From: Escherichia coli
Lineage (GTDB): Bacteria > Pseudomonadota > Gammaproteobacteria > Enterobacterales > Enterobacteriaceae
Strand: one strand, 5' to 3'
Length of the DNA stretch: 64,000 nt
NCBI RefSeq assembly: GCF_024700885.2
Contig: NZ_CP117014.1
In this document: piece by piece, positions 8,191 to 63,962 of the stretch
Position numbering within the stretch: the first letter of the stretch is position 1
How the letters are laid out: each line of letters starts with the position of its first letter
Notes under the pieces: model-generated
What the model saw: only the letters and a program-made list of their open reading frames with translations
What the model was told of the DNA's origin: nothing
The model's database searches: none
Position numbers and translations under genes: made by a program

Positions 8191-8348
8191 GGTTAAGCCC
8201 TAAATTCGGGCGCGGCGTGAAGGTTCTTTTGACGGGATAACAATACCTACTTTGTGATTTAGTCAATAGGTTTAGTAAAATAAAATCTATTAACACTCAT
8301 GTTGTTATGTGATTTAATTTTAGTTTTCTAACACAAATCATTAGAGTT

Positions 8349-8757: not shown

Positions 8758-9216
8758 ATGAGTCACGTTAACCCATCAAAAACACAATATCGCTTAATGC
8801 TGGCGATCGCGTCAGCTATACCAACCAGCCTGAATCCCCCGGCAGGCTATCCCACTGTTGTTGATGATTGTTTTCAGTATTACGGAGAAGACATCCTGAG
8901 CCAGTCAAAAGCGCTCAAGCAGTTATGTAAGGCAGGTATTCTTCACTGTATCGGAGATCCGGACGATTTTGTTGTTATGCTGGCGGATCGTGACTCTTTT
9001 CTACTGTCCTGGAAAGCTGGTGCGCGCGAAGCACGTTTGGGGAATGGTATTGGTTACATAGACTATAGCGATTGTCCGCTGGCATTTGCTGGTGGATATA
9101 TGCATTGGCATGAGCGAAATAGGGGCCGTCAGCGTCAGTATCGTTTGAGTGACTTTAACGTCTGTCACGGTTTCGAAGAAGCTGACAGCCAGGACATCTG
9201 GCTTCAGGAGCCTTGA
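8758..9216 (+). CDS. Hypothetical protein (152 aa)
   Basis: ORF 16 nt downstream of previous gene, same strand. Confidence 0.4.
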   Translation: MSHVNPSKTQYRLMLAIASAIPTSLNPPAGYPTVVDDCFQYYGEDILSQSKALKQLCKAGILHCIGDPDDFVVMLADRDSFLLSWKAGAREARLGNGIGYIDYSDCPLAFAGGYMHWHERNRGRQRQYRLSDFNVCHGFEEADSQDIWLQEP

Positions 9217-9536
9217 TCCCCCTTCCCTTCCCAAATCTCCCTGTTTCTTTGGTTATTCAGTGCGTTTCGTTGGTTGCATTCGTCGATCGTGCTGAATAAC
9301 TGTTCAGCGTATGTCGGATACTTGTTTAACAGCACTGGCGTGTCTTCTGGCACTAAACAAGGGGAGTAATCAATCAGATTTGCCTGCGGCTTGCTGGTGG
9401 CTTCTACGGTAATTTTCACTGGCACGCTGGTTGATGGCTTTTGCCCGTTCCCGCTGCATCCTGATAACGTCATCAGGCACACGCACATCGTTAATCCCAG
9501 CACGGCGTAACGCATTTTCAAGGCGAGTGATTTCAT
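9204..9536 (-). CDS. Rz1-like o-spanin lipoprotein, partly embedded in the Rz reading frame
   Basis: Lipobox LSGC after a hydrophobic signal segment; out-of-frame overlap with the Rz-like ORF; likely true start near 9515. Confidence 0.45.
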   Translation of the reverse strand: MKSLALKMRYAVLGLTMCVCLMTLSGCSGNGQKPSTSVPVKITVEATSKPQANLIDYSPCLVPEDTPVLLNKYPTYAEQLFSTIDECNQRNALNNQRNREIWEGKGDQGS

Positions 9537-9843
9537 TATGGCTTTCCTCCCGTTGTTTGATTAGGTTGGCATTCAGTTCTGCTGTTTTGCGCTGGTACTC
9601 CTTTTCCAGTGCTTTAATTCTTTCGTTTTCGGTCAGCATGGCTGAGCGAGCGTTCTCACTTAACTGTAATGCGGTAGAAAGCGTGTTGTTCGTGCTTTCC
9701 AGTTGTGATTTTGAGTCTTCAAGCGATCGGACATACCTGATGTGTTCGATAACTGCCGTCGTTGTTCGGTAAATTCCAGAAATGGCTAAAACCGCAATTA
9801 CAATCAAAATTATCTTTTTCAAAACCATCCTCTTCAGGTTCAT
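9370..9843 (-). CDS. Rz-like i-spanin (N-terminal transmembrane helix plus coiled coil)
   Basis: N-terminal hydrophobic helix (IILIVIAVLAISGIY) followed by heptad-rich E/K/R/Q region; lipoprotein gene overlapping in another frame. Confidence 0.5.
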   Translation of the reverse strand: MNLKRMVLKKIILIVIAVLAISGIYRTTTAVIEHIRYVRSLEDSKSQLESTNNTLSTALQLSENARSAMLTENERIKALEKEYQRKTAELNANLIKQREESHNEITRLENALRRAGINDVRVPDDVIRMQRERAKAINQRASENYRRSHQQAAGKSD

Positions 9844-21257: not shown

Positions 21258-22087
21258 TCGATCACTCCGTTTTGAGTCGTATCAAAATTTCTGGCAGGTA
21301 TGCAGTAGTAAAGCGAACCAACATGTTGTGTGCCGTAGCTAAAAATACGGTGCACGTACCACCAGCGGCGGGCTACGCCGTTTACCATCTCTTCATTCCA
21401 TTCAAGAATTGATCCGACGGGGACGTTATTTGCTGCAATACGCAGAATCAGAACATCATCGGTTAAGCCATCCTGCTCACCGTCTGCGTCAATCGCATGG
21501 AAAGAGTCACGCCCGTCAGGGTTATCCAGCACATAAACGATTTCAGGTTCCTGGTAAGTCAGTTCGCGTTGGTTGTTATCCAGTTCAGTGAATGACTCTT
21601 CTCCTGTTTCGTCGCTGACTACCCCATATGTGCCAACATCTGGTCGATATAAGAGAGCCTGAAACGCGTCTGGGCTGGATTCAATAATCAGCATCCAGTC
21701 TGCGCGGATTTGGTCGTTAAAGGCTTTATGCCCGTTATAGCGTGCTTTTAGCTGTGGCGTCGGTTCTCTGCCAGCCAAGGAAGGTGGAAGTATGGCTATA
21801 TCTGATTCGCCAGCGTCCGGAGTAAGGCCACCGTTGCTATCAGCAAAATTATCATGGCTATCAGCTTCGGCGGTGGATTGCTCTTCCAGAATGCTGAATG
21901 AATCCGGTCCGGCATTGCCATGTTCCGGCGCGCTTCCTGCATCCGCTTCAACCGTCGCTGGCGTTTCTCTCTGCGTGCTGTCATGTTCTGACTCCTTACT
22001 TGCCAGGTTTGCATCGTCAGCAAACCATTCGTCAAAACGGCCCATAAGCATCCTCAAAGGTCGATTTATCAGGTATCGAGGGTGCAT
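21254..22087 (-). CDS. Putative baseplate/tail protein (277 aa)
   Basis: First ORF of operon, overlaps next gene by 4 nt. Confidence 0.3.
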   Translation of the reverse strand: MHPRYLINRPLRMLMGRFDEWFADDANLASKESEHDSTQRETPATVEADAGSAPEHGNAGPDSFSILEEQSTAEADSHDNFADSNGGLTPDAGESDIAILPPSLAGREPTPQLKARYNGHKAFNDQIRADWMLIIESSPDAFQALLYRPDVGTYGVVSDETGEESFTELDNNQRELTYQEPEIVYVLDNPDGRDSFHAIDADGEQDGLTDDVLILRIAANNVPVGSILEWNEEMVNGVARRWWYVHRIFSYGTQHVGSLYYCIPARNFDTTQNGVIE

Positions 22088-22190
22088 TGTCTGGAGATTG
22101 TGATTTCAATTCATATCCCAGCATGGGACTAAAGTGCTTTACATTGTCCCATATTGGAACTACTATACTTTCAGTGAGAAGGAATCTGTG

Positions 22191-23681: not shown

Positions 23682-24878
23682 TCAAGAACCTTTCTTCACA
23701 TACTCCATGAACATTTTTTCAGCCTGCTCAGGTGACGTTCCTGCCATGACAAGCGCATCAATGAACGCCTGCTTCTTCAGTGCGAACTGATCGGCAAGGC
23801 GTTGCTGAAGCTCCTTGTTTTTCTGTTTCTCACGTTGCAAGGCCGCTTCTTTTGCTGCCGCCCGTTTTTTCTGTGCGTCTGACAACTTTCTGGCTTTGGT
23901 CAATTGGTCACGTAGCTTGTCAATTTTGCCGTTGTCCTTTGCCAGTTTTGTGCTTAAAGCGGCCTGGCGCTTCTGATAGAGCCTCCATTCGCGCTTGGCA
24001 GCGTCAACGTTTGTTTTACTGTTGCGATTGCGATTAAACTCCCTCTCGTCTTCTTTTGAGAAGTGTTTGGTTGTACGGCGGCGATCGTCACCAAATGCAA
24101 TTTGCGTTGCGGCCTTTTGTAACGCACGAGCAATACTCATTTGCCAACTGGCGGACTGTAACCGCGTCATTGAGTGGATCACGTGTTTACAGGCGACGCC
24201 TTGTAGCTTAGGGTTACGAACTTTTGGATAGGCGTATTCTTTTGGCGGGGCCAGGGCAAAGTTACCTGCAGTAGCGATGTAACGATACCAGTATTGATGA
24301 CGACCACAGTCACAATCGAAAGACACCCGCCCAGCGCACAGTGATTTAGTGATTTTCAGAGCTGATTTATCGTCTTCTGCGATGTCATCGACCATCTGAT
24401 CCCATTCTTCAAAGCGTATCCGGACGATATGGTGCTGGTGGACGGATATATCCGATGCTTCTACGCGGATATTAATCACGTTGTGGCGAAGAGATACGGG
24501 TGTAGCTCTTTTGATACCAGATCCGTCATCCACGGCGTTATTTGCACGCTTAATATCGATTGCCTGGCTGGATGCCACCAGCTGGGCGTATGTGATGCCA
24601 GCCGTCTTGCTGTCATATTTTTCGCGTGTTTTACTCCGTAGCTTTTCGAAACCTTTCAGGTCGTCTCGCGTGAAGAACGTGCCGCCTTTTTTCTTCCCTA
24701 ACTTGAGAATATCTTCGGCGGATTTGTTCCTCAGTCTACCTGGCGTCAGCGTCCGGTGAGCTTGTCGGCGCTTACGGGTTTGTTCTTTCCTGATAAGGTC
24801 GAATAAACGCGTGAAGTCCTTAGAGGACAGGCCGTCAGTGATATAGCGCCCGTCCTGGTTTTTCAGGAAATCAGGCAT
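23682..24878 (-). CDS. SWIM-type zinc-finger protein with basic N-terminus and K/R/Q-rich coiled-coil C-terminus (398 aa)
   Basis: CDCGRHQYW...(25)...CKHVIH matches a CxC-Xn-CxH SWIM finger. Confidence 0.45.
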   Translation of the reverse strand: MPDFLKNQDGRYITDGLSSKDFTRLFDLIRKEQTRKRRQAHRTLTPGRLRNKSAEDILKLGKKKGGTFFTRDDLKGFEKLRSKTREKYDSKTAGITYAQLVASSQAIDIKRANNAVDDGSGIKRATPVSLRHNVINIRVEASDISVHQHHIVRIRFEEWDQMVDDIAEDDKSALKITKSLCAGRVSFDCDCGRHQYWYRYIATAGNFALAPPKEYAYPKVRNPKLQGVACKHVIHSMTRLQSASWQMSIARALQKAATQIAFGDDRRRTTKHFSKEDEREFNRNRNSKTNVDAAKREWRLYQKRQAALSTKLAKDNGKIDKLRDQLTKARKLSDAQKKRAAAKEAALQREKQKNKELQQRLADQFALKKQAFIDALVMAGTSPEQAEKMFMEYVKKGS

Positions 24879-25200
24879 TTTCTATCTCCGGTTCCGCGCT
24901 CGCGTAATCACGGATCTTGTTCCTCAGCCATGCCACATCAGGAAGAGTTAACGTGGTCCCGGCGGGCATTTCTTCCATTTCTGACTCATGGCCCACCAGC
25001 ACCCGGAATACCCAGCGCAAATCTGCATTGCCATACGCCCGGTAGGCTGCAAGGTCTGAACGATATACTTCATCAATCTTTATCGTGTACTGGAAATTAT
25101 CAGAGTGATACTCCGATACCCGCTTAATCATTTCCTGGTGAAACAGCGCACGAAAAATATCGTCTTCAATGTACCTATCGTCGAGTCTGCTATAGCCCAT
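24871..25200 (-). CDS. Hypothetical protein (109 aa), translationally coupled to SWIM protein
   Basis: 8-nt overlap with downstream gene. Confidence 0.4.
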   Translation of the reverse strand: MGYSRLDDRYIEDDIFRALFHQEMIKRVSEYHSDNFQYTIKIDEVYRSDLAAYRAYGNADLRWVFRVLVGHESEMEEMPAGTTLTLPDVAWLRNKIRDYASAEPEIENA

Positions 25201-25372
25201 AACAAAGCCTCTCAGTCATAACCTGGGGGAAACTGTATGCAGGGTGTGAAATGCGAGAAACAGACAGGTCACCATAAATCCCCTCACTGGTGACAAGTGA
25301 CTTTCATTAATCTTTATGCGGGGGCCAGCTTCATTTGCTGGCATTAGATTAAAAATTAAACGGAGTGAATGA

Positions 25373-25507
25373 CATGGATGTTATATTCGAATTATTAATG
25401 CTAATTGATCTGTTTATGAACGCTTCATTGACCACTCAAATACTCGCGTCAATATTTTTGTTACTCTTCTACCTGGTATTGAGGGAGTTAACAAAGCTAC
25501 TAATGTG
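25373..25507 (+). CDS. Small hydrophobic peptide (44 aa), candidate membrane-active toxin-like peptide
   Basis: MDVIFELLMLIDLFMNASLTTQILASIFLLLFYLVLRELTKLLM; GGAG 12 nt upstream; below the track's 60-aa cutoff. Confidence 0.3.
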
Positions 25508-25508
25508 A

Positions 25509-26162
25509 TCAAAGTATCACGGTATCTTCATCAACTTCTTTCCCAGCCAGTGACTTTGGCTGGGAGGTGCCTGCTTTAACTTTTTCATGCCCAATAATGG
25601 ACAGGAACGAAGCGAGTATGCCTGTTTTTTGCTCTTTCTCGACTGTACCGGTCATCTGCTCTACATAATCTGCACTGGCAACGTTGTGGTATACGGTCGC
25701 GTAGCAACACAGGATCATCAAAATATGCTCCGGCCTGATATCCTGCCAGTTCACCCTGTAGACTTCTTCTCCGTTACCGTTGTATTCGGTATCAACGATA
25801 GAGTCGGGGATTTCGAAAGCACCTTTGTTATTTTGCGGCAGGGATAATAGTTTCTGGAGTTTTAACTCTCTGTATCTTTCCATCCCAACGATGATTGCTG
25901 CTCTACCATCGGCATGACGGGTCTTGAGAGTCACCTGGCTTGCTCCGGTGCCAGCGGAGATCGTTGGCGTAATTTCGTCTACTAGAACCTTAAATTTGCT
26001 TTTCCGCAGGGCTGCTATAGCTGGAGGAATTTTTTGCTTTTGCTCCAATGCTGACGCGGGAAGGGGTTTTACTTCGTTAATAATGAGAGCACCGTCTTTC
26101 AGTATTGCAGTGAGCATTTGAGGCTTGCTGGTGGTCAGGCTGAATATTGCGATCTTTTCCAT
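25509..26162 (-). CDS. Hypothetical protein (217 aa from ATG 26162, GGAGGAAGG RBS)
   Basis: Track ORF extends to 26204 but a strong RBS precedes the internal ATG and a terminator hairpin occupies 26197-26213. Confidence 0.4.
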   Translation of the reverse strand: MEKIAIFSLTTSKPQMLTAILKDGALIINEVKPLPASALEQKQKIPPAIAALRKSKFKVLVDEITPTISAGTGASQVTLKTRHADGRAAIIVGMERYRELKLQKLLSLPQNNKGAFEIPDSIVDTEYNGNGEEVYRVNWQDIRPEHILMILCCYATVYHNVASADYVEQMTGTVEKEQKTGILASFLSIIGHEKVKAGTSQPKSLAGKEVDEDTVIL

Positions 26163-26189
26163 TTTCCTTCCTCCACGGATGACGGATAC

Positions 26190-26213
26190 AAAAAAAGGCC
26201 GCACATGGCGGCC
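26190..26213 (-). terminator. Rho-independent terminator (minus strand)
   Basis: GGCCGC-acat-GCGGCC with A7 on plus strand = U7 tail on minus. Confidence 0.5.
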
Positions 26214-26430
26214 TGCTTTGGCGTTATGACTCCCTACCGCGCTTCGGCTGAAAGTTAATCGTCAAAAGAACCTTCAACGGGAGCCGTTAGCGCGATGGAT
26301 TATGTGCAGTTTGTGATTTCCAAAATAGTGTCAACCACTTTTTGTGGATTTTATTTTTTGACCGAAATTTGGCCTAAATCATGTTGATGTAGTTAATTGT
26401 TTTTATAACATAAAACTTCATTTTGTTTAC

Positions 26431-27054
26431 ATGAAGGATGGTGTAGTGAAGTTAAGGGTTTTAGGGGCCGCGCTCGCGGCTATGTTGGGATGCGTATCTG
26501 CTAATACTGCCAATGCAACTGCGTTACCTGCACAATTCAGGGCAGGGCAGCAGGTTATGAATAATGCTGGTGGGGATCATTCACAAGCGGCCATTATGGA
26601 CTTTTGCAAGAGGGAGGGCATTCCATTACGGCCTGTTGGAACTCAGTTTATTGGTAAAACTGACTTTTGCGTTTTTGCATATACAGCATATCTGACGGAC
26701 AAAGCTATAACAAAAACAGGTTATTCAACCAAAGATACTCTTTCCAGATTAAGTCAGGGATGGCAGCAATTCGAAGTGTATCGCCAGCAAGGATTAGGTG
26801 AGTTATTGCAACCACTTTTTATGCTTGCGTTGGTGCCCGAGGGGCAGCAATTTTTGGTTAAAAAGGGAATGCTTCGCCAAAGTGATATTGCCGGGTTCGA
26901 TAGCATGATGGCTTATGAGCGCAAACTAACCGAGCAGCGAAATAAAAAACCATCTGCTTCATGTGTGCAAAGTAAAACAGCAGAATACAGTGCAGTAGCC
27001 GGGCCTTTAGCCAAACAAATGGCAGAGCAATGGTGTAAAAAATACGGGCAATAA
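26431..27054 (+). CDS. Exported protein with signal peptide (207 aa)
   Basis: N-terminal LGAALAAMLGCVSANTANA signal-like segment. Confidence 0.5.
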   Translation: MKDGVVKLRVLGAALAAMLGCVSANTANATALPAQFRAGQQVMNNAGGDHSQAAIMDFCKREGIPLRPVGTQFIGKTDFCVFAYTAYLTDKAITKTGYSTKDTLSRLSQGWQQFEVYRQQGLGELLQPLFMLALVPEGQQFLVKKGMLRQSDIAGFDSMMAYERKLTEQRNKKPSASCVQSKTAEYSAVAGPLAKQMAEQWCKKYGQ

Positions 27055-52997: not shown

Positions 52998-54361
52998 TAA
53001 TCATCCTCCGGCGGTTCTATCGCGATATCATCATCTCCGGCGTCATACCCTGCATCAGATGCATCATAATCACCGTAAATTTCAGCCGTTGCCGAAGGGT
53101 CAATATCCAGCTCTTCGTCGTTGGCCTCGAATTCTCCAGCTTTACGCTCGCCATTGCGGTCGTAATCTCCGCACCCCAATTCTTCAACAATGGTTGCCAC
53201 ATCCGCCCGGCGCTCTGCCAGCCATTGCGGATGGTTAGCCTGAAGCGTTGCAAACTCCCTTGCCTCTTTGTCCAGCTGTTCATCATCAACATCATTGACG
53301 TCAGAAACAGGTGGTTCGAGAAGAGTGATAGCTTTCGCCGCGCGCGCCGCGAGGATAGCCGGGACGCTGACACCCTGGCGCTCGATGTATTCAGCAACAC
53401 CGATATCATCCAGTTCCTCGCGCTCACGCATACGTATAGCGGCGGCGATAACTCTGGCTGCGCGTGCGTCAGCGCCAATGCGATATTCAATCTCTTTGCC
53501 ACGCTGTTCGGCCTGTAGGCGTGCTAATTCGAGTTTTTCTCTGGCCTCAGCCTCTTTGAATGCTTGCTGGCGAGCGCTCTGACGAAGCTTTTCATCCCCC
53601 TGTCGCAGCTTTTGTTCGGACTGATATATAGCTGCCAACCTACTGATAAAATCATTCATGTAGTAGGCCGCGTCACTGATTAGACCGAGAAGGCGCTGCC
53701 CAGGGTGCATTCCTTCTGGCTCTTTATCGCCCAAGGCGTCTATTTCCGCCTGTAGACGTTCGGCCTCCTGATCAACAATGCTTTGATACTGAAGTGCGCG
53801 CTCTTGCGCCATTTGAATTGCTAACCGCAGGTGTTCTTCTGCGCCGTTCTTCATCATATCGCGAGCCACATTCGTAGTTGGCAATGTGGCACGCTGCACA
53901 GCACCGTCAGGGATCATTGCAGAAGATCCCTCAATTTTTGGGGCGTTTTTATCTTCTTCGGGGATCATTTTCGCCATTTTTTCGCGCAATGATCTCCTGA
54001 CAGATTCTTTTATCTCATTGTTATTATTTGAATTATTTTCATGATCCGAAGTTTTCTTTCTCGGCATACTTCGGAAAGAACCTGCGCCCTGCGAATTGTC
54101 AATTTCTGTAAATTTTGTTTTTTCTGCACCCTCTTCCAGCTTTTTTGTTGCTCTTCCCGCCCGTTTTTTTTCAGGTGATTTGGTGCTTTTTTTTGTTGTC
54201 TTTACCTGCGACCGCACCTCATTTTTTTTCATATTGAGATGCTTTCTGGCTGTATTGAAGCTAAGGCCATGCTCCTCACAGTATTCCTTTACAGTGATCC
54301 CTTTTTCTTCACGCAACGCTATAAAGCGGGCGCGGTGCTCCTCCCAATTAACCAGACTCAT
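52997..54361 (-). CDS. pacA: Terminase small subunit (PacA-like) with N-terminal HTH
   Basis: N-terminal ...KEYCEEHGLSFNTARKHL HTH; acidic C-terminus; internal GATC cluster. Confidence 0.7.
   Translation of the reverse strand: MSLVNWEEHRARFIALREEKGITVKEYCEEHGLSFNTARKHLNMKKNEVRSQVKTTKKSTKSPEKKRAGRATKKLEEGAEKTKFTEIDNSQGAGSFRSMPRKKTSDHENNSNNNNEIKESVRRSLREKMAKMIPEEDKNAPKIEGSSAMIPDGAVQRATLPTTNVARDMMKNGAEEHLRLAIQMAQERALQYQSIVDQEAERLQAEIDALGDKEPEGMHPGQRLLGLISDAAYYMNDFISRLAAIYQSEQKLRQGDEKLRQSARQQAFKEAEAREKLELARLQAEQRGKEIEYRIGADARAARVIAAAIRMREREELDDIGVAEYIERQGVSVPAILAARAAKAITLLEPPVSDVNDVDDEQLDKEAREFATLQANHPQWLAERRADVATIVEELGCGDYDRNGERKAGEFEANDEELDIDPSATAEIYGDYDASDAGYDAGDDDIAIEPPEDD
53912..54046. other. 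Candidate pac site: cluster of five GATC (Dam) sites within pacA
   Basis: GATC at 53912, 53925, 53963, 53991, 54043 (~0.5 expected by chance); GGGATCATT duplicated. Confidence 0.4.
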
Positions 54362-54750
54362 AAAGCAACACCACGCTTTTTAACGGCGGCATTCCACAGC
54401 TTATTCGCCATGTCCACCAGCTCTCGTTGCTCTTTTCGCGCCTGTTCGACTGATTTCCTGCTACAGTTTTTAACCAGTAAACTGCCATATTCAGGGGTTC
54501 GCCCACGCACCTTGAACTGATATCCGTTCAGGCCATGCAACCAGTATTTTCGTGGGTAAACACGATCATCAAGCTCACAGATTGCCCTGCTTGAACGAAC
54601 AAAATGACGAATGATGTTAGTTACACTTACTCGTGAAACATGGAGATGAGGGTATTTTTCTTTGGCGAGAGTGGTAATTTCAGTGACTGTCAGATAGCAG
54701 TCAGCCCTGATCATGATATCCGCAATTTCTGCGCTGCTGATTTGTTCCAT
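54358..54750 (-). CDS. Small protein immediately upstream of pacA (Lpa-position gene; putative late activator)
   Basis: 130 aa, 4-nt overlap with pacA start; assignment by synteny with P1 lpa only. Confidence 0.4.
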   Translation of the reverse strand: MEQISSAEIADIMIRADCYLTVTEITTLAKEKYPHLHVSRVSVTNIIRHFVRSSRAICELDDRVYPRKYWLHGLNGYQFKVRGRTPEYGSLLVKNCSRKSVEQARKEQRELVDMANKLWNAAVKKRGVAL

Positions 54751-62006: not shown

Positions 62007-63962
62007 TTAGGCCGCATCGGCGATTATTTTACGCAGTTCATCTACCGAGTAACGCGTAGATACCATCCATGCAGGACGGTCAAAGTTCACATCAGCAACC
62101 GGGTTTGCTTCAAAATTCCAGAAACGTCCGCCAATCTTCTTAATCGCGTCTTTGGCGTTCCGTATTGTCGAGGAACCTGGTTGGTCGGCAATGAGATAAA
62201 CCGCGCCAACGTCCTCGCTGACGCTCCACCAGCGCCCGCGAACACGCGCCTTAGCGCGAATCGGCTTATCATTAACCACAATGATATAGTCATCATTCGC
62301 CGCTTCATCAGCTCTGGCTTCAGCCACTGCCGCCTGCTCTTCTCTTTTGCTTTCAGCCTGCTCAAGCCTTTCCGCGATCTCTGATTCAGTGGCCCCGCCG
62401 TTTTTCAGCGATACATAGTCCTGCCACGTTGCCGATTTGAGCGTATCCGGCAACTCATTCACATAGTCGCCGTCTTTCAACTCACGGGCGCGGCGGGTAG
62501 CCATTTCTACCAGGCGATTAACAGAAACAGCATCAGCAAAATCGTCCTTACTAATGTGTTTTTCATCAAATGCATTGATGACAGCCCCCACCTTAATCCA
62601 CTGTGCTGCCGGTGATTCCAGGGGGTTATCAGCCTGAACAATGGCGAGTTTCGCTCCATCTACCCCATTATTCGCCAGCTGTTCCAATGCCGCCCATCCA
62701 TCTGCATCACTGAGTGATTTATATTGCTCAAACAATGCATCGCGCCAGGCCACCAGCGCAGAACGTGTTTTTTCGATCTTCGCCTTAATTTTCGCGATCT
62801 TGACCTGATTAAACATCCGTTCAATATCATCGATATTGCTAAAGGCTTTCATCCTGCCCTGGAATAAACGGTATGCCAGCACGGTCCTCCAGAATGATTC
62901 CAGACCTTCTCCGGACGGTTTGCGGAACAAGCTAAGAATATCTTCAGAAGTGACTTTATTAAGCGAACGACCTGACAGACCACGCCCAGCCATCCAGTTT
63001 TCGAACTCATGGGCAACATCATCCATCGTTGCCTGTGCGCCCCATGCCTGCATTCCCTGGGTGTAATCATACCCATACAATGCCTGGAGGAATCCCTCGC
63101 CGTCCACGATATTCAGCGGGTTATCACTGGCTTGTATTTTTGCCACTTCACGCTTCAGCGCCTCGTCGTTGCCATCAGGATATATCCATCGCTCAGGTGC
63201 TATATCCGATGCTCGCCCGATTTTTTGGCCTATCACGCCATCATAGGCCGATGACAGCGCGATCTGACCATCATCTGTGCGATATGCCCAGTATTTAATA
63301 GCTGACCCACCGCCCCATGCATTACCAGGTTTACCAGCAATAACATTCATTACCCCATTGCGAATAGCATCATAGAACTGATCGCGAGTAAGTATTGTTG
63401 ATAGCTGGTGGCACTGAACACCACGCGCAGCCGTTGCGCGCGATTCAGCTACCCCCTCTTCAAAAGTTACCGCTTCAATCACAGAGTCAAACGGCAATGT
63501 AACGATTGACCCCGGTGCTCGAGCGTAACGACTTGCTCTATCCAGCCAGGCGATACGGCAGAGGTATTGTGCTTTTTCACCGTCAATTTTTTCCACCCGG
63601 ACAATCGCTGTTGTTTCGCGATCATCAATGACTGCACGGTAATAACTACCTTTATGCAACAGGATATTCTTGTCAGTGCGCATATATTCCTGTGGGTTCT
63701 GAATAACATCGATACTGATATCCAGCACACCAGACTTAATAGCGCGCTCCACCTCACCACGAGAGCGTTTCATTATGGTATCCGCGTCTTTTGCCCTGGT
63801 GATCGCAAACCGCAGCACCCGCGCACGTTTTCTGTAGCTACTCAACTGCTCAAGCGCGTATTTTTGCCCATTCCTGTTCGTACCCGCTTTTATCAGGTCG
63901 TCAAGATTGCGCTGGTAATACTCTATCTGTTCCATCGCGCTTTTCAGTTCTGTCTCCATCAT
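62007..63962 (-). CDS. Large hypothetical protein (651 aa)
   Basis: Long ORF, no recognisable motif; upstream region runs off the window. Confidence 0.45.
   Translation of the reverse strand: MMETELKSAMEQIEYYQRNLDDLIKAGTNRNGQKYALEQLSSYRKRARVLRFAITRAKDADTIMKRSRGEVERAIKSGVLDISIDVIQNPQEYMRTDKNILLHKGSYYRAVIDDRETTAIVRVEKIDGEKAQYLCRIAWLDRASRYARAPGSIVTLPFDSVIEAVTFEEGVAESRATAARGVQCHQLSTILTRDQFYDAIRNGVMNVIAGKPGNAWGGGSAIKYWAYRTDDGQIALSSAYDGVIGQKIGRASDIAPERWIYPDGNDEALKREVAKIQASDNPLNIVDGEGFLQALYGYDYTQGMQAWGAQATMDDVAHEFENWMAGRGLSGRSLNKVTSEDILSLFRKPSGEGLESFWRTVLAYRLFQGRMKAFSNIDDIERMFNQVKIAKIKAKIEKTRSALVAWRDALFEQYKSLSDADGWAALEQLANNGVDGAKLAIVQADNPLESPAAQWIKVGAVINAFDEKHISKDDFADAVSVNRLVEMATRRARELKDGDYVNELPDTLKSATWQDYVSLKNGGATESEIAERLEQAESKREEQAAVAEARADEAANDDYIIVVNDKPIRAKARVRGRWWSVSEDVGAVYLIADQPGSSTIRNAKDAIKKIGGRFWNFEANPVADVNFDRPAWMVSTRYSVDELRKIIADAA

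Follow-up and report, generated by a model that had tools for sequence, protein, structure and literature searches.

The window analysed here, a 64-kb (64,000-nucleotide) stretch of DNA, belongs to a phage-plasmid of the P1 family that resembles D6. Between two late genes of this element, mat and gene 26, lies an open reading frame of 44 codons on the opposite strand, whose peptide MDVIFELLMLIDLFMNASLTTQILASIFLLLFYLVLRELTKLLM is 100% identical to the product of orf77 of phage D6, a hypothetical protein in the D6 record (Table 1). A sequence-only reading had placed this ORF one base too low, at 25373-25507, and had described it as unannotated, preceded by a GGAG ribosome site and convergent with a gene at 25509-26162; the ORF, its peptide and the ribosome site are indeed present, the convergent gene is mat, and the stop codons of the two genes abut (TGA/TCA). 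"Unannotated" holds for the RefSeq plasmids processed by PGAP, which omit the ORF, but not for D6, where it is the CDS orf77 (YP_009914754.1), nor for some nr entries, which name it "membrane protein", nor for PHROG 38362, a family listed with function unknown. The match to the 44-position profile of this family spans the full length in both allele groups described below (E=1.2e-30 for allele A, 2.4e-15 and 8.5e-11 for allele B copies). Phage D6 matches the region at 97.8%; the region is further matched in 99 of 5,426 complete E. coli genomes, every time on a plasmid of ~90 kb, and in 118 plasmids of Escherichia, Salmonella and Shigella in PLSDB. Elsewhere in the family the ribosome site is weaker: allele B has GGA at this place, and the YH1 lineage has AGTG.

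Table 1. Features of the orf77-like locus and of the late-promoter system in the window
Feature	Position	Strand	Remarks
Gene 26 (baseplate wedge)	24871..25200	-	divergent neighbour of the orf77-like ORF
Gene 26 D6-type late promoter, ATTTCACA-ccctgca-TACAGT	25232..25252	-	degenerate box
9-bp box AAGTGACTT	25295..25303	+	identical to the -22 (Lpa) box of P1 LPmat and LP23
Predicted -10 hexamer TAATCT	25308..25313	+	4 nt after the box (9+4+6 P1 geometry), no -35
Predicted 5'-UTR hairpin, GCCAGC-ttcattt-GCTGGC	25324..25342	+	~4 nt from the predicted start (~25320)
Shine-Dalgarno GGAG	25362..25365	+	8 nt before the ATG of the orf77-like ORF
orf77-like CDS, 44 aa	25374..25508	+	ATG 25374-25376, TGA 25506-25508
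mat (maturation control protein)	25509..26162	-	convergent neighbour of the orf77-like ORF
mat D6-type late promoter, AAATCACA-aactgca-CATAAT	26299..26319	-	exact motif copy
Further D6-type late-promoter copies	8240-8260, 22086-22106	-	motif scan
Lpa homologue	54361..54750	-	identical to D6 Lpa, ~31% identical to P1 Lpa

ORFs of at least 30 aa occur by the dozen in this stretch, and the presence of the orf77-like ORF by itself is no more than chance would give; we accept it as real because of comparative evidence and not because of ORF presence alone. A chance ORF in an AT-rich intergenic spacer would agree with the abundance of short ORFs in the region, with the tendency of AT-rich DNA to encode Leu, Ile and Phe, and with the absence of a PGAP call. 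Against this explanation stand frame-specific purifying selection and third-position bias in two independent allele groups. In the frame of the ORF, dN/dS ranges from 0.06 to 0.24 among pairs of allele A and is 0.09 between allele B copies, compared with 0.02-0.11 for the neighbouring mat; the other five frames give 0.2-5, and the single low value among them belongs to a frame that shares third positions and is closed by stops. Synonymous changes are in excess in two independent pairs (P=2e-5 and 1.4e-5), and across 19 distinct intact alleles the variable sites at the first, second and third codon positions number 7/5/21 in allele A and 7/3/13 in allele B. Allele B (e.g. MNIFNKLIDLLNKFISASLTQQVSTSVFLLLFYLVLRELTKLLM) differs from allele A at ~40-50% of the N-terminal residues, and the start, the length of 44 codons and the stop position are nevertheless kept through this 40-50% amino-acid divergence of the N-terminal half, with the stop codon itself switching between TGA and TAA. 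An orf77-like protein is found in 29 protein clusters, nearly all of 44 aa and with conservative substitutions. Taken together, these comparisons indicate that the orf77-like ORF is a real protein-coding gene under purifying selection, and the probability that it is merely a chance ORF is close to negligible. The Salmonella plasmid pSa1423 (L003, NZ_MK356558.1) was left out of these analyses, as its many single-base indels in coding and non-coding sequence look like assembly errors.

Several copies of the gene are disrupted: one carries a nonsense mutation (TTA to TAA at codon 30; L005, NZ_CP091837.1), another a transposase/IS insertion at about codon 30 (L009, CP125036.1), and a third an IS2 between promoter and ORF (L041). 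These natural knock-outs sit on resident plasmids, and the gene is therefore dispensable in the plasmid state. A sliding divergence analysis additionally revealed a block of ~90 bp straddling the stop codons of orf77 and mat (25464..25553) in which divergence falls far below that of either flank, even at synonymous sites. The block folds somewhat better than shuffled sequences (z -2.7 / -3.3); the central stem at the stop-codon junction was discarded as a candidate structure, being lost in L006 and pEF-4, and no conserved structure came to light that would account for the low divergence.

The peptide is strongly hydrophobic (GRAVY 1.54), as the sequence-only reading had noticed. Its most hydrophobic 19-residue stretch, at about residues 18-36, is conserved, residues 2-18 form an amphipathic helix that is clearest in allele B, and the conserved C-terminal tail RELTKLLM has a net charge of +1; the charge of the N-terminus differs between the two alleles. 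The AlphaFold2 model (pLDDT 94) consists of two helices (residues 2-16 and 19-43) with a break at the conserved A17-S18. This helix-break-helix model, together with the hydrophobic span at 19-36 and the purifying selection, bears out the earlier view of a gene for a small hydrophobic protein, which the model suggests is most likely inserted in the membrane with an amphipathic helix and one membrane helix. No match to the peptide was obtained in Pfam, NCBIfam or PADLOC at E<=10, and a profile of both alleles retrieved eight proteins among 1.84 billion representative proteins, all of its own family.

We then considered how the gene came to lie at this position. In relatives with a Mat 50-66% identical (L049-L052), mat and gene 26 overlap without a gap, and in Raoultella the gap between the two genes holds hicAB on the opposite strand, gene 26 having its own D6-type promoter. 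This makes the mat/26 junction a hotspot for cargo, and orf77 is one such cargo. In some plasmids of E. coli and E. fergusonii the junction holds relE/higA, beside gene 26, in addition to orf77. In L019, an allele A ORF is found beside the toxin-antitoxin flank, and mat and the orf77-like ORF diverge independently of each other, so that recombination evidently reshuffles the parts. A scan of genome contigs anchored on Mat found only one close relative. P1 itself has no counterpart of orf77; the gene after mat in P1 is res, in convergent orientation. Phage morons are cargo genes with their own promoter located between core genes, for example lambda bor and lom. The orf77-like ORF resembles them in being inserted between genes that are adjacent and even overlapping in relatives, in its opposite strand, in its lower GC content (34% versus ~49% in the flanks), in its own promoter-like block and in a slot that is used by other cargo; unlike typical morons it has no terminator of its own, and its predicted promoter is of the late-activator and not of the constitutive type. 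By these sequence comparisons the orf77-like ORF is an accessory ("moron") gene that is restricted to the D6-like lineage and came to lie, in opposite orientation, between two late genes, mat and 26. The earlier placement of the gene inside an accessory island holds in the sense of a cargo insertion between two core late genes. That the locus combines a real small membrane-protein gene with a cargo insertion is, in our assessment, very probable.

The eleven late promoters of P1 share a 9-bp inverted repeat, which is the binding site of Lpa (PMC10695390). Using the P1 RefSeq annotation and a scan of the P1 genome, we defined the geometry of these promoters as the 9-bp box, 4 nt and the -10 hexamer, a spacing found in 8/8 of the P1 sites checked; examples are LPmat (AAGTGACTT-cagt-CAGAAT), LP23 (AAGTGACTT-tcaa-TAAAAT), LPpac (ATGTGACTT-tcgt-TACCCT) and LP26 (AAATGACTA-gcgg-TAGAAT). 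Upstream of the orf77-like ORF, the plus strand at 25295-25313 reads AAGTGACTT-tcat-TAATCT, 61 nt before the ATG, and this full motif of box, 4 nt and -10 occurs once in the 64-kb window against 0.00 expected. The box is invariant in seven diverged sequences, in which the hexamer varies at position 4 alone (TAATCT, TAACCT, TAAACT). In a scan of viral contigs, 33 of the 35 sources with the block have an intact 44-codon ORF 59-62 nt downstream, and in the relE/higA variant the block stays directly before the ORF, ~790 bp away from gene 26. A role of the box in serving gene 26 was rejected: read towards that gene, the box has no -10 after it; the toxin-antitoxin variant keeps the box next to the ORF; and gene 26 is preceded by a D6-type promoter of its own. 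Based on these motif comparisons, the conserved block is probably an activator-dependent late-type promoter. Downstream of the predicted start, the 5'-UTR hairpin is predicted in both alleles with different stems around an invariant CCAGC/GCTGG core, and its covariation is weak, as just one pair is compensated and some others are broken.

Other box-like sites in the window were also inspected. A perfect palindromic P1-type box (AAGTCACTT/AAGTGACTT) lies at 62938-62966, within a 651-aa darA-like ORF, and is probably not a promoter, given this position and the lack of a convincing -10 on either side; a further site at 9137-9155 was set aside, with one mismatch and a distance of 947 nt to the next gene on its strand. 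No equivalent of LPpac was found beside the lpa gene of the window, because lpa overlaps the next gene there. Close to the orf77 block, 20 bp (CAGTTCAGGGGGATGTGGTT) between the gene 26 promoter and the P1-type box, present in D6 and most relatives, are missing from the window (at about 25273). This deletion truncates D6 orf76, which is also missing from the toxin-antitoxin variant and is probably not a gene.

Size and hydrophobicity had suggested to the sequence-only reading a membrane-depolarising type I toxin or a small membrane regulator. A type I toxin would be made from a constitutively transcribed, stable mRNA that an antisense RNA keeps silent, in a toxin-antitoxin or post-segregational killing module. 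The plasmid location and the single hydrophobic helix in a peptide of fewer than 60 aa are shared with hok/sok-like systems, the neighbours in the hotspot are type II toxin-antitoxin modules, and a weak sigma-70-like site on the minus strand (25420-25391) could give an antisense RNA across the start codon. Most other observations argue in the opposite direction. No model of Hok/Gef, Ldr, TisB, Ibs, ShoB, Fst or any other toxin in Pfam and NCBIfam matches the peptide at E<=10, and Rfam returned no antitoxin RNA, a permissive threshold over 24500-26800 yielding two junk matches only. Promoter-like sites occur at the level of chance (2 found versus 2.3 expected), the antisense one is absent from allele B, no minus-strand terminator lies between 25201 and 25508, and there is no conserved fold that would sequester the ribosome site; thus, the search for an overlapping antisense RNA, with Rfam and with promoter and terminator scans, gave no candidate kept between the alleles. 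Finally, the sole conserved upstream signal is of the activator type without a -35, which fits an activator-dependent late promoter and not a constitutive one. We consequently do not retain the toxin interpretation, which in our judgement is very unlikely.

A constitutive promoter that escaped recognition could alternatively supply a membrane protein made in the lysogen, acting in lysogenic conversion or superinfection exclusion, in which case the conserved block would be something else, e.g. a recombination anchor at the boundary of the cargo. Many prophage morons are expressed in lysogens; moreover, the conserved 22-nt block lies exactly at the boundary of the toxin-antitoxin cassette insertion, and in that variant a TTGACT hexamer is found 19 nt upstream of the -10. 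No consistent -35 was found upstream of the ORF across contexts, though, and the plus-strand promoter scan upstream of the ORF was empty. The block also stands out as identical sequence beside a diverged right-hand flank, and variation confined to position 4 of the -10 fits a promoter. This alternative is unlikely, if less so than the toxin.

If the block is a late promoter, the identity of its activator becomes of interest. The late operons of the D6 clade share a motif derived in this work, AAATCACA followed by 7 nt and the -10, whose box end and spacing are unlike the AAGTGACTT plus 4 nt of P1. In D6 it precedes R, prt, mat, orf16, pmgB, 7, 23 and ddrB, with degenerate versions upstream of lydA and 26; across the whole D6 genome, no classic late operon has the P1-type motif before it. 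The window holds three exact copies of the D6-type motif (0.31 expected), which precede genes 23 and 7 as well as mat, and the motif is also found in distant Enterobacter and Raoultella relatives. The gene 26 promoter falls in the 62 nt upstream of that gene and is kept in both contexts. In contrast, the region upstream of orf77 does not fit the D6-type motif in box or spacing. The terminator scan found none downstream of the orf77-like ORF and none between mat and gene 26. The ORF faces mat, and transcripts from the predicted mat late promoter would probably run antisense across the orf77-like ORF. Between this promoter and the mat ribosome site we observed a strong terminator-like hairpin on the minus strand (26196-26214, AGGCCGCCATGTGCGGCCT followed by TTTTTTT), a sequence that suggests either an attenuated or antiterminated mat leader or a short RNA of ~100 nt.

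The explanation that we favour overall, with a probability of about 0.55, is that orf77 is a moron gene for a 44-residue helical membrane protein that is switched on by a late activator of the Lpa class. Under this explanation, transcription would start near 25320 only when such an activator is present, which would place expression late in the lytic cycle and leave the gene silent while the element persists quietly as a plasmid. The mRNA would carry the 5' hairpin and the GGAG ribosome site, and the peptide would enter the inner membrane via residues ~19-36, while its amphipathic N-terminal helix would lie on the surface of the membrane. Its accumulation might then perturb the membrane, conceivably through a depolarisation that shifts the timing of holin-dependent lysis. 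The activator could be the Lpa of the element itself or that of a P1-type phage, and the geometry of the motif favours the P1 type. What counts against our explanation is that D6-type genomes use another late-promoter motif at all their late operons; given this different native motif, the element's own Lpa may not read the orf77 promoter. The ribosome site that is weak in some lineages, the missing downstream terminator with probable antisense transcription from mat, and the disrupted copies on resident plasmids also speak against it.

On the geometry of the motif, activation by a P1-type Lpa deserves serious consideration, and orf77 might then serve as a cross-phage sensor, its promoter being read by the Lpa of a P1-type phage that superinfects the cell or shares it with the element. 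The resident D6-type plasmid would make the peptide only once such a phage is in its late phase, and the membrane would fail or the cell lyse too early, as in abortive infection or exclusion. Several patterns are consistent with this possibility, to which we give a probability somewhat below one in three. In two diverged D6-type genomes, a single perfect P1-geometry site is present beside 8-10 native sites of D6 geometry each, and this site is always before orf77; one of them, the most diverged orf77 carrier, has a D6-type Lpa (81.5% identical to that of D6), eight D6-type sites and one P1-type site, the one before orf77. The orf77 box equals the best P1 boxes (LPmat and LP23), the site is kept while its flanks diverge, and the Lpa proteins of the D6 and P1 types are only about 31-34% identical. 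Furthermore, a P1-type lpa occurs in 650 of 5,426 E. coli genomes versus 99 for the orf77 locus, and the hotspot otherwise holds toxin-antitoxin cargo.

P1 appears to offer a mirror case. Its late operons have P1-type sites, and a single D6-type motif (GGAAATCACAAAGTACA-TACCGT) lies 39 nt upstream of the holin paralogue lydC (L058, NC_005856.1 31100-31700, minus strand at ~492-470; ~27010 in OP279344), for which the curated P1 record annotates no promoter. LydC shares only 31-33% identity with either LydA, and apart from the motif the intergenic regions show no relationship. Against the sensor proposal it must be said that the evidence is at the motif level only, that the two box types share a half-site (AAGTCAC vs AAATCAC), so that the D6 Lpa could recognise the site, and that the lydC motif region is identical in 14/14 copies and hence uninformative on selection. 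The broader idea that D6-type and P1-type elements each wire one small membrane-protein gene (orf77 and lydC, respectively) to the late activator of the other, as a defence trigger, is more doubtful still; in such an eavesdropping scheme, a resident prophage would detect the late phase of its rival by transcription and respond with membrane damage, premature lysis or exclusion.

These results add a small membrane-protein gene missed by PGAP to a phage-plasmid family that is common in E. coli, Salmonella and Shigella, and they supply the motif of the late promoters native to the D6 clade. If the orf77 promoter truly answers to a P1-type activator, it would represent a temperate phage sensing the developmental stage of a competitor via the competitor's own transcription factor, and P1 lydC would also gain a function. 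In P2 and P4, the late promoters are cross-activated by Ogr and Delta, a demonstrated interaction that serves a satellite exploiting its helper. The proposal for orf77 shares with it that the late activator of one element would switch on promoters of another element in the same cell; it differs in being a hypothesis from motif geometry, and in that the response would act against the activating phage.

The P1 gene pmgL with its promoter LPpmgL provides another parallel, as it is a small gene read away from gene 26 from a P1-type Lpa promoter (box, 4 nt and -10). PmgL itself, soluble and rich in Cys, has 81 aa and shows no similarity to the orf77 peptide. In P1 the LPpmgL box is common to LP26, whereas in the D6-like element the box goes with the small ORF and gene 26 has a D6-type promoter of its own. 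With holins, antiholins and P1 LydC, the orf77 product would have in common that it is a small helical membrane protein probably made late in infection, and P1 lydC has the mirror-image foreign-type motif. Unlike them, the orf77 peptide is half the size, with one hydrophobic span and a tail RELTKLLM of net charge only +1, by which it does not qualify as a holin; it shows no similarity to LydA or LydC and is encoded outside the lysis genes, neither beside lydA/lydB, which in D6 lie elsewhere, nor beside a spanin-like pair. Such a pair is found in the window as two overlapping minus-strand ORFs (9204-9536 and 9370-9843) that resemble an o-spanin/i-spanin set, one having a lipoprotein signal with its Cys and the other an N-terminal membrane anchor followed by coiled-coil-like sequence.
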